A DNA stretch of 63,115 nucleotides, filler included, from Octopus bimaculoides (lineage: Eukaryota), in assembly GCF_001194135.2 (NCBI RefSeq). It is 8 parts of 7 records of this genome, joined end to end, with 100 filler letters (N's around TTAATTAATTAA, not from the genome) between each part and the next. Parts side by side here need not be neighbours in the genome. Positions count along the whole stretch, not along the records: positions 3,538 to 28,269 come from NC_068987.1; positions 28,370 to 39,154 come from NC_068982.1; 6 more parts are not named here. One strand, given 5' to 3'. The notes beneath the pieces are model-generated. The model had not been told where the DNA came from. It worked only from the letters and a program-made list of their open reading frames with translations, and searched no databases. Every line of letters starts with the position of its first letter. The stretch's first letter is position 1. Below, piece by piece: positions 4,815-34,207 of this stretch. A program made the translations under genes and the position numbers.

Positions 4815-5060
4815 ATATAATATGTGACAATTAGTTGGTTGTCATAATAAAACTCAGAGTTTCGGATACCAGGGCTGGAGACTGCTCCGGCATCTCATCA
4901 TAACTGATGAGATGCCGAAGCAGACTTCAGCCCCGGTATCCGAAACTCTGAGTTTTATTATGACAACCAGCTAATTGTCACATATTATATTTGTAGATAA
5001 ATTCCTCTATTTTACATAATATCGAGGTCTCATTCATTTGTTGTCATACTATTACTAGTA
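4815..5060. mobile_element. Fold-back element with Penelope-like (PLE) inverted pLTR geometry
   Basis: 86-bp arms 4815-4900 and 4905-4990 (81/86 identical as reverse complements), 4-nt spacer; right arm carries an HHR motif and continues uniquely to an (AT)n tract. Confidence 0.6.
4900..4958 (+). ncRNA. Type I hammerhead ribozyme motif (palindromic stem III)
   Basis: Stem I AUAA/UUAU; CUGAUGA 4904-4910; stem II GAUGCCG/CGGUAUC with apical GAAG-CAGA-CUUC and one bulged C; GAAA 4942-4945; stem III ACUC-U-GAGU; GUU triplet, cleavage predicted after 4954. Confidence 0.7.
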
Positions 5061-5444
5061 ATATATATATATATATATATATATATATATATGCATATGT
5101 ATGTATTTATGCATGTATGCATACATGACTTCAGGCGGTATATAGAAGCCGTGGAACAAATCCCAAATCCAGAGGCGGTTAAACACAGCCATGCGTTTCC
5201 CATATCCGTCGTTCACTGCAACATGTCACTGACCATAGCGGTACATAACAGACATCACATCAGTAAAGAACATTATCTAAAATATCCGATCATAATATCC
5301 GCCGCCGTTTCTTTGAGGAGATGGACACTATCAAAGATGGTAATTGTGCTTCACACTTGAGGAATAGAACTTTGTTTTCTTTTCATATTGAATTAATATC
5401 CGCTTTTCTCCAAGGAATCGTCTGTTCACATAATATAGACACGA

Positions 5445-5529
5445 TATAAATACGTCGTATAACGACCAACACTTGGATGTATTGTTTGGTTGAAGTGTGT
5501 TAACTTATTTTCAAACAGAAAGGGTAAGT
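5445..5529 (+). promoter_or_regulatory. Candidate TATA box plus short first exon and 5' splice donor
   Basis: TATAAATA at 5445-5452 in a CpG-containing unique block; AG-G|GTAAGT donor at 5524-5529 followed by a CT microsatellite. Confidence 0.25.
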
Positions 5530-5761
5530 TTTCCAAATTTCTCCCTCCTTCTCTCTCGTATTCTCTCTCTCTCTCTCTCTTTCTCTCCCTCTTTCCACTC
5601 AGTCTGTCTCTTTGTGTGCGAGTGAGTGTGTGTGCGTGAATTGAAGTAACAGGTTAAACATATTCAAACACAACACATGCACATGCATGCATCTGCACCG
5701 ACAACAACTTCATATAGTGCACAGGTGGCATTAGCTGTCTGTACCGCTGCATATGTTACAA

Positions 5762-6025
5762 CTATATATATAGACAGATAGACAGACAGACAGACAGACA
5801 GACAGACAGACAGACAGACAGACAGATAGATAGATAGATAGATAGATAGATAGATAGATAGATAGATAGATAGATAGATAGGTAGATAGGTAGCTAGATA
5901 GGTAGGTAAATAGGTAGCTATATAGGTAGGTAGCTAGATAGGTAGGTAGCTAGATAGGTAGGTAGCTAGATATGTAGGTAGCTAGATAGGTAGGTAGCTA
6001 GATAGGTAGGTAGCTAGATAGGTAG
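5762..6025. repeat. Compound microsatellite (GACA)n-(GATA)n-(GGTAGGTAGCTAGATA)n
   Basis: Directly visible graded tetranucleotide to 16-mer repeat running into a gap. Confidence 0.9.
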
Positions 6026-31897: not shown

Positions 31898-32112
31898 CCC
31901 TTTAGTATTTAAACCAGCCTTATCCAACCAAAATATTTTGTTTTATCTTCACTCTGATCAGATCTGGTCTCTCGCACTTACCCTACAATATTATTCTAAA
32001 AATAAACAATTATGTCATTAAAATCTCAAACTACAAAGTAATGCATGACTAATTCATATCAACATGAATAAATAAGCATTACATTTGACAGAGAAATCTG
32101 AATGCTAAAGGG
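31898..32112. mobile_element. piggyBac-type MITE
   Basis: TTAA|ccctttagtatt ... aatgctaaaggg|TTAA: 11/12 TIR match with TTAA target duplication. Confidence 0.8.
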
Positions 32113-33467
32113 TTAAAATAATAATTGTTTCAAATTTTGGCTCAAGACCAGCAGTTTTAGACGGGATAGGGCTTGGTTGATTACATCAACTCCCAGTACA
32201 TGGCCGGGACCTTATTTTAGCAATCTCAAAAGGATAAAAGACAAATAACACAAAGTTTCTAACAATCACTACTAACATTTTTGCTTACTATGAAGGAAAT
32301 TTTTAAAAATTAGGAATTTCTCAGGTTGTATGTCTTTGTATATTAGCAGTTATGTGAAGGTCACATCACTTCATTATATCTCCTACCCCAGCATTCGTAG
32401 TTCACCCCTGATATGTGTCTTACATCAGTTAATAACTATGTTTACCTTTAAGAAACATTTTTAATCATCTACATGAAAATTCTCCCAAGAAGATGAAAGA
32501 AATGTTAAACTTTCATCTGCCAATCAAATATTTGCAGTGAGTGGGTGACAACAAAGCCATAGCAGTGGTGCATCACCCTGGTGGCTAATTACTTTTACAC
32601 AAAACGTGGTCGCCAAAAATATGTGTTTTACCTTTTGTATAGCAATTTTCTTGACCAAAATATAAATAACTATGGTTGATCTGAGAAAAGATGAAGCTGA
32701 AATACAGGACTCACAAAATAAAATTTTATAAACTGATAAACTTTATAGTTTCATAGTTTATTCCGGTATATTGTTACAGTATTGTACTTGAATGCACAGA
32801 ATCATACATTTTTCGTTACAAAACCACTTTAAACTATCTTTCAACAGGTGTATAATGAAACATACTAAATTTGTTTTTTCTACAAAATATGCTTGCAAAA
32901 TATGCTTGTAAAACATCTTATGTGAGAATATATCTTATACACTGGCAAATATCACCATTGAGAGCCAATAATAATAGATCAGTATAAAATCTCTGTCTGG
33001 CCTCCCCTAGAATAAATACACCTATTATATCCAAATTGAAAAACTGAATGCTAAATGTGTATCTTAAAGGCATGTACAAATTAAGAATGATCTGCCTAAA
33101 TTAACTTTTCTTTAACATTAGTCAGTCAAATGTGATAATTGCTATTGAAGAATCAAACAAAAAAAAAAAAATTTAGGGTTGGGTTAAACCAATTTCAATA
33201 AATAAAAGTGTGCAACAGTAAATACTTATTAAAAGAAACATCAAAACAGAAGTATATAAAAGAACATAAAACCTTTTGATGGTTACATGATGTTTTTCAA
33301 ATAAACCAGAAGTAATTATTGCTCCAAATTCAGTATTGAAGTCAAACATCATACAACACCTCATTGAAGAGTATTTTCCTGGATTCAGATGACATATCAA
33401 AATAGTCATGAAGCTTGATGTCAAAATTTCTCATGAAAGCCGATGTTTGTATGACTTTTGTATACAA

Positions 33468-33625
33468 ATGTGGCTGTATGGTTGAAAAGTTTACTTTCAG
33501 ACTATGAGGCTTTAGGTTCAGTCTCACTGCATGGTACTTTGAGCAAGTGTCTTCTACAACAGCCACAGACTGGCCAAAGCCTTGTGGGTGGATTTGGTAG
33601 ATGGAAAGTGAAGGATTCCGGCCAA
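33468..33625 (+). mobile_element. SINE family A (degenerate)
   Basis: gtggctgtatggttg...ggttcagtctcactgc...ccaaagccttgtgggtggatttggtagatgga. Confidence 0.75.
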
Positions 33626-33642
33626 GTATATATATACAAAGA

Positions 33643-34207
33643 CAATCCTTACATCCAACTTTACATGGATGTTGTGTTACAACACCAAATACTGTGTTAT
33701 TTACCTTGAGAGGACCTCTCATATGGACATATAGTACTTAAAAGCACTCACATTTATATCATTGTCAGACAAGAATCATCTACTATGGATGCCAGAACTG
33801 CCAGATCATGTTATTTCACTCTGTCCTGGCTCATCAGTAACAGATGACCAGTAGTAGCATAATAGCCAAATCACATGTCAACGATGTGTAGAGTTTCAGA
33901 GTCTTTTCAGGCACTGATGTCTCAAATAGCCAGAATGCTTATTAAAAAATAATTAATAGTGACAATATTAATACCAAGGCAATCTTCATATACAACTTAA
34001 TGTGGATGTTGTGCTAGGATGCCAAGGCAGGGTGAAATCACATGATCTGGTACTTCCAGCACCCATAGAAGACAATACTCATCTGACAACAATATAAATA
34101 TGAGTGCTTTTATGCACTATGCATCCATATGAGACGTCCTCCCAAGGTAAATAATGCAGTATTCAGTGTTTTAATAAACGTCCACGTTAAGTTGGTTATA
34201 AAGATTG
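33643..34207. mobile_element. Fold-back element with ~205-bp diverged inverted arms, PLE-like
   Basis: 33643-33850 is the reverse complement (roughly 75-80% by eye) of 34000-34207; an HHR motif lies at the inner end of each arm, facing outward. Confidence 0.65.
33798..33843 (-). ncRNA. Type I hammerhead ribozyme motif (partly decayed)
   Basis: Minus: CUGUUA-CUGAUGA-GCC aggacag AGU-GAAA-UAACAUGA-UC-UGGCAG; 6-bp stem I with 2 G-U pairs. The sister arm (34010-34052) has better stems II/III (GCC/GGU, AUCA-CA-UGAU) but a broken CUGANGA. Confidence 0.5.

Follow-up and report, generated by a model that had tools for sequence, protein, structure and literature searches.

What kinds of genetic element carry the hammerhead ribozyme motifs found along this stretch of the Octopus bimaculoides genome, and are these motifs built in a way that would let them cleave? 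The window, that is the whole stretch of 63,115 nucleotides (filler included) joined from parts of RefSeq assembly GCF_001194135.2, had been described in a first-pass annotation as holding type I hammerheads from at least four unrelated repeat families. All seven sequences reported there are present, although the single window resolves into two separate stretches, with five items in positions 3538-28269 (NC_068987.1) and two in 28370-39154 (NC_068982.1). The count of unrelated families has held up, and five genome-wide repeat families, here called A to E, were recognised, several of which are derived from Penelope-like elements (PLE) or are retrozymes. The motifs are very probably dispersed, mostly truncated copies of these five unrelated high-copy families, all of them likely inserted by PLE reverse transcriptase/endonuclease; in four of them the motifs are type I hammerhead sequences for which cutting is predicted in dimers only, and in the fifth a permuted, core-opened form for which it is predicted in the monomer. 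Dimers of PLE hammerheads are reportedly the subject of a 2017 paper. As in PLE-mobilised sequences, insertions of all five families end at a constant 3′ position within a microsatellite ((TA)n or (TAT)n), and partial tandems and inverted 5′ parts occur. Most copies in the window are damaged. Comparisons below with PMC8557442, PMC7229834, PMC10085705, PMC3088659, PMC7151607 and Li et al. 2026 draw on portions of these sources.

The motifs exceed the level found in 60 dinucleotide block shuffles of the window, as had been expected. A type I descriptor recovered those starting at 4904, 10716 and 28542, and the shuffles gave means of 0.017-0.17 and a maximum of 1. With a strict CUGANGA core and the loosest stems, 4904 was the sole pass, and one match was reached in 6 of 60 shuffles; a descriptor allowing a mismatch at 10.1-11.1 recovered 4904 and 12880, with 0 matches in all of 40 shuffles. 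No hammerhead was among the Rfam matches listed for the window (150 of 272), and Rfam returned no gathering-level match on six family loci. The palindromic stem III that had been proposed is found as sequence in family A (ACUC-U-GAGU), B (ACGU), C (ACAUGU) and the sister arm of D. The further claim that such a stem cannot form a normal loop is too strong, since stem III of the motif at 4900 could pair over 3 bp around a 3-nt loop. The monomer minimum-energy fold of A, B and C was not a hammerhead.

Family A is represented by a palindrome. Its right arm (4898..5060, plus strand) comprises the putative 3′ end of a Hydra-clade PLE plus the tail, with a type I core at 4904-4910, a predicted cut after 4954 and a (TA)n end; the left arm (4815..4897, minus strand) is an inverted, 5′-truncated copy of the same 3′ end, 94% identical to the right arm, in which core position C3 was lost at the junction. 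Together they form a near-perfect hairpin of 176 nt (-142.6 kcal/mol), and if transcribed through this hairpin, the hammerhead likely cannot fold. In the genome, 974 first-look candidates were counted. A common hammerhead, an extended stem I and a tail usually ending in (TA)n were seen in the 30 loci fetched, several of which have an inverted partial copy upstream, and at family level CUGANGA, GAAA and UH stand in type I order with stems I-III. Shared sequence reaches at least 1.2 kb upstream, and three loci (L006, L024, L025) retain, about 900 nt before the ribozyme, a broken reading frame with an endonuclease-like remnant that resembles by eye the Hydra-1_Obim rows of the endonuclease alignment in the supplement of PMC8557442. 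Pfam found no family for three of these fragments, so the Hydra assignment rests on the comparison by eye. By this likeness to a C-terminal Hydra-type GIY-YIG endonuclease, family A is identified as the 3′ end of a Hydra-clade PLE. It shares with Hydra-clade elements including Hydra-1_oBim (Craig et al. 2021, PMC8557442) the 3′ type I hammerhead with an N3-1-N3 near-palindromic stem III, given as the same ACUC-N-GAGU in File S2, as well as the (TA)n target, the inverted 5′ copy and a similar endonuclease C-terminus. Unlike the Hydra-1_oBim entry there, it belongs to a separate family: its stems are spelled differently, GAAA is preceded by an additional C, and the 3′ UTR is long and resembles a microsatellite.

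Families C and D are non-coding tandem units within the retrozyme range of ~170-400 nt, each with one type I hammerhead in which CUGANGA, GAAA, UH and stems I-III occur in the expected order at family level. Family C is present as an inverted part of a 352-nt unit (12810..12950, minus strand; core 12874-12880, predicted cut after 12850) followed by a 3′ part of the unit (12951..13110, plus strand; unit positions 72-258) that ends in (TAT)n. The genome contains 211 exact 35-mers of this family. The tandem unit of 352 nt was read from locus L079, and its circular fold of -122.3 kcal/mol lies at z = -6.1 against 100 shuffles. With a few overlapping loci counted twice, the core is intact in 36 of 38 motifs and C10.1-A11.1 replaces G10.1-C11.1 in 37 of 38. 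The motif at 12844 has the type I core attributed to it, but with a C10.1-A11.1 pair that is fixed in the family; the same variant is listed for PLE-X1_cBra in File S2 of PMC8557442. Cross-species conservation of the family C hammerhead was considered and rejected, 19 of 33 read differences being merely the majority letter of the genome.

Family D is older, with 72-78% identity among its main matches and a unit spacing of 344 nt in locus L101. In the window, an inverted arm of the ~344-nt unit (33637..34010, minus strand) has an intact core (33837-33831), decayed stems II and III and H17 at 33804, and the sister arm (34011..34241, plus strand), 79% identical to it, has a decayed core, the stem III AUCA-CA-UGAU and H17 at 34047. 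The motif at 33798, previously counted among the non-relics, belongs to a decayed copy: stem II is broken, stem III mismatched, and no descriptor was passed. Across 29 aligned motifs, 85.2% of cells are paired. Stem covariation, which had been proposed as a check, gave a divided answer: the score of family D exceeded all 500 shuffles, but doubly changed pairs were not above shuffles in D (4 against a mean of 4.2; 360 of 500) or in E (see below).

In their non-coding, strongly folded tandem units of 344-352 nt with one type I hammerhead, C and D resemble non-LTR retrozymes (Cervera and de la Pena 2020, PMC7229834; Li et al. 2026, 10.64898/2026.07.22.740005), and they agree in size and layout with the mussel units of 350-390 bp (PMC7229834). 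They differ from the retrozymes described in these sources in that the copies seen here are mostly partial or inverted and known from sequence alone, and family C further in its C10.1-A11.1. Taken together, families A to D add more octopus repeats to a pattern that is known already.

Family B departs from this pattern in its core. One 5′-truncated copy (10652..10838, plus strand; core 10716-10722, predicted cut after 10742) has an extra A after A9, the ACGU stem III and a tail ending in (TA)n; a young copy with an internal deletion lies at 28378..28664 (plus strand; core 28542-28548, predicted cut after 28568). The motifs at 10711 and 28537 had been read as ordinary type I hammerheads, and they do represent a family-wide motif, but their core reads CUGUUGA, an A6U change that is fixed in family B, and so lacks the conserved A6 of a type I core. 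An alternative register starting at U3 was discarded on inspection by eye, since it does not sustain stems I and II. Counted by exact pattern match, with a control pattern giving 0 matches, family B occurs 5,310 times in the genome, and position 6 is U in 98, C in 2 and A in none of the first 100 matches listed. A similar pattern with A6 has 61 matches versus the 5,310, which would be about the level expected from sporadic mutation. Among 23 related motifs in 1.26 Mb unselected for family B, 15 have U6, 7 have A6 and 1 is misregistered; six of the seven A6 motifs are sister lineages with another stem II loop. The motif tree is unresolved (4 of 70 branches starred), and its topology suggests that the A6 copies are scattered. 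The decayed minimal hammerhead at 19386..19420 (plus strand) sits on a long branch of this tree and, by its likeness by eye to loci L172 and L184, is likely a member of an A6-bearing sister lineage.

The young copy at 28378..28664 is 100% identical over 153 nt in at least 8 places, and the youngest copies form tail-to-head tandems with internal deletions of variable size; family B is a PLE-type unit, both abundant and very young. The closest published minimal hammerheads share with it a short stem I, an unpaired base after A9, G10.1-C11.1, the absence of a stem III loop and thousands of solo copies. Unlike those (variant in the text: U3-A8), family B has U at A6 and a stem II of 4 bp. Among the papers listed in the literature searches, no natural hammerhead family with A6U was found. 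A6C does occur in nature and has low activity (PMC3088659; PMC7151607).

The fifth family has another architecture. The sequence at 27157-27217 had been taken for a type I relic; it is actually a permuted hammerhead in which CUGANGA lies 3′ of GAAA. It occupies 27134..27206 of a 5′-truncated copy (27015..27253, minus strand) of a ~0.8-kb non-coding unit ending in (TA)n, the strand order being taken from homologues. Read along the minus strand, the 5′ half comprises the stem II 5′ strand (27206-27201), one strand of an extra helix (27200-27194), the stem III 3′ strand with U16.1 (27190-27186), H17 (27185) and the stem I 3′ strand (27184-27179). After a 4-nt linker, the 3′ half continues with the stem II 3′ strand (27174-27169), GAAA (from 27168), the stem III 5′ strand, the extra-helix partner, the stem I 5′ strand and the CUGANGA box (27140-27134). 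This order is that of a putative non-circularly permuted hammerhead whose chain is opened between A9 and G10.1. In the window copy itself, decay shows as G5A, G10.1A and one stem I mismatch. In the genome, 641 exact 35-mers of family E were counted, and its tandems have a spacing of ~0.8-0.9 kb. No coding frame was found in the 1 kb upstream of five copies; without an open reading frame for an N-terminal endonuclease and reverse transcriptase, family E is at most a non-autonomous passenger and not a Naiad PLE.

Of 36 extracted copies, four were left out as partial or shifted; in the remaining 32, 95.7% of cells are paired over the five helices. An A-U pair of stem III is replaced by G-C in 7 of the 32, the window copy included; any of the four letters is found at N7, and H17 is usually C or A. 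Doubly changed cells number 8 versus 2.9 in shuffles, with just 2 pairs involved (360 of 500). The stronger support for the proposed wiring comes from between families, not from covariation within family E. The 3′ ends of Naiad_Obim and Naiad_Ovul, two PLE of the Naiad type, are wired in the same way, with letters that are unrelated in every helix. A 25-letter motif taken from the octopus Naiad consensuses in print occurs 132 times, as an exact match, in this genome; ten genomic ends were fetched and three parsed by script, of which all three gave stems I-III and two a clean extra helix. In the squid Naiad_Esco, stems I and III and the extra helix were seen by eye, with an imperfect stem II, and no such motif was seen by eye in the consensus ends of Naiad_Mmer, Naiad_Omin and Naiad_Adux. 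In the portion of PMC8557442 considered here, Naiads are reported to be without canonical hammerheads and their ends are named “HHR_half_core”, with no structure given for them; those of octopus and squid share the wiring of family E, which differs from Naiad ends in being non-coding and unrelated in sequence.

The nearest described relative is the type-SGC hammerhead HRIMA-1 (Eckert et al. 2023, PMC10085705), and it is conceivable, though improbable, that family E is an ordinary hammerhead of this type, or a chance assembly of hammerhead boxes, in which the core is not opened. The order of cut site, GAAA and CUGANGA (blocks S, G and C) and the short linker between stems I and II are indeed shared, as is a pseudoknotted fold; covariation within family E rests mainly on one pair, and two CCAG strands could alternatively pair with two CUGG strands. 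Against this stands the stem II 5′ strand: after CUGANGA, the stem II 3′ strand finds no partner. In family E, and equally in the Naiad end with its unrelated sequence, the strand that pairs with it over 6 bp precedes the cut, so that the block assumed unbroken in the type-SGC description of PMC10085705 is split after A9. A descriptor written for the permuted order also gave 2 matches in the 1-Mb sample described below and 0 in 5 shuffles. The core-opened reading of family E, which is the one we favour, further differs from HRIMA-1, an environmental RNA in that source, by its extra helix and its host, an animal retroelement. No paper describing this topology was found in the literature searched.

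How representative the window is was estimated from 120 evenly spaced stretches of 10 kb (1,008,196 called bases). They held 5 strict motifs with a canonical core and 3 with a non-A6 core, 8 in total, and none occurred in any of 5 shuffles; extrapolated, this gives roughly 16,000 strict motifs genome-wide, with a wide error since it derives from 8 counts. The window has 3 motifs in 54,890 called bases, ~7-fold above the sample average (Poisson ~0.01, hand calculation), and therefore overstates the density of the genome. The population had been called dense and diverse. Its diversity is confirmed by several unrelated PLE-derived and retrozyme families that are abundant across the genome, but its density of ~8 strict motifs per Mb falls inside the published range and is ordinary for invertebrates. 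Published counts of minimal motifs are ~2,000 in Schistosoma and ~9,000 in Xenopus tropicalis (PMC4209133), and hammerhead counts are given as ~5,000 in mussel and ~120,000 in axolotl (PMC7229834). The supposition that such motifs had not been catalogued for cephalopods is correct in that no genome-wide cephalopod catalogue was found in the literature, the supplements of PMC7229834 and bioRxiv papers lying outside the scope. It fails in that the Hydra-1_oBim entry in File S2 of PMC8557442 is already a published case of a near-palindromic stem III in a cephalopod PLE hammerhead.

RNA reads contain sequence of both families searched. The RNA runs come from a single study. Three of them yielded 361, 347 and 284 reads of family C, or ~300 per 12 million, and two of these three yielded 3,112 and 2,754 reads of family B; in both families the reads fall on both strands and span the predicted cut. 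Reads of family C include unit-to-unit joints, which are equally explained by tandem DNA. No pile-up of read ends was seen at the predicted cut sites of B and C, in libraries of a kind that cannot reliably show ends. Sequence of B and C is thus present in RNA libraries, and the reads speak to neither cleavage nor circles. Insertions starting at the predicted cut were 3 of 35 in family E and 0 of 19 in family B, which is not a significant enrichment (p = 0.54).

In the mechanism that we propose, each hammerhead in a tandem transcript of a source element would cut and so release RNA of unit length, which is perhaps circular. The PLE protein would then start reverse transcription inside this RNA, ~100-200 nt past the ribozyme, and the resulting partial copies would be inserted into AT microsatellites; internal initiation of reverse transcription by a PLE has been described (PMC11167929). 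In family B, cutting is likely slow or absent, and the lineage would have spread on uncut RNA, with which the insertion of an anole PLE in vitro without ribozyme cleavage (PMC11167929) agrees. For families B to E, no autonomous partner was identified. Copies in the genome, and those in the window too, are likely for the most part inactive passengers.

The observations on family B also bear on a different view, according to which the hammerhead folds are kept as RNA structures recognised by the PLE protein and cleavage is vestigial in all five families. This we regard as unlikely. In its favour, family B was amplified to identical copies with U6, the related A6C change lowered the rate of one ribozyme more than 10,000-fold in Mg2+ relative to Mn2+ (PMC7151607), catalytic mutants of a PLE still insert in vitro with no reads ending at the cut (PMC11167929), and the RNA reads examined here do not pile up at the B and C sites. 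It is harder to reconcile with families A, C, D and E, which keep the catalytic letters while N7 and H17 vary, as selection for cleavage predicts, and with mussel and coral retrozymes of the C/D type, which are reported to cleave (PMC7229834). That the host has domesticated the motifs as intronic regulators of neighbouring genes is very improbable. Intronic hammerheads are known from amniotes (PMC3088659) and B and C sequence does occur in RNA-seq reads, but the motifs sit in high-copy families whose members here are either young or in decay, with damage in several and both orientations represented, and no convincing exon was seen near them.

We think it probable that family E and the cephalopod Naiad 3′ ends carry an active, monomer-cutting hammerhead of undescribed topology, opened between A9 and G10.1, which would be the missing ribozyme of the Naiads, and that family B flourishes with an A6U core that is crippled, which would make it a natural experiment on the need of PLE for cleavage. 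Family B offers a ready comparison of core-altered with core-intact copies for what PLE hammerheads do. If family E cleaves, the CUGANGA block would prove divisible, contrary to a published assumption, a permuted hammerhead would be placed in animal genomes, and it would be explained why descriptor searches have found no ribozyme in Naiads.

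A change of the hammerhead core to U4C (CCGANGA) was detected in a sister lineage of family B, the abundant Penelope-like element-type repeat with a minimal type I hammerhead and an A6U core, at the genomic loci L172 (position 7421, minus strand), L184 (8886, minus) and L223 (4903, plus), and represents a second recurrent core change within the family B superfamily. The family B copy at window positions 28378-28666 has an identical copy 1,618 bp upstream, beyond an N gap (L246, L247); this second copy probably reflects duplication in the assembly and not a tandem arrangement. 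At L092:1830-2213, an inverted pair of family C immediately adjoins a copy of family D, the other tandem retrozyme family. Type I-like motifs with a long palindromic stem III were also seen in other families (L161:+9590, L170:+4271 and L132:-8228).

Elsewhere in the window, a repeat of about 550 nt is present in two diverged copies (10986-11620 and 11984-12530), each of which begins after a (TAT)n run; the ribozyme search there consisted solely of descriptor scans. Broken reading frames at 35040-35407 (minus strand) resemble, by eye, what is left of a retrotransposon gag gene. The open frame at 53250-53891 (plus strand), which spans 214 codons and contains runs of His, Gln and Thr, is probably a host exon.

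An additional abundant family of type I minimal hammerheads, represented at L123, L190 and L209, gave three strict matches per Mb in the systematic sample. In both the stem II strands and the letters 5′ of GAAA it is similar to the permuted family E, a likeness that may point to a common origin of the two families.
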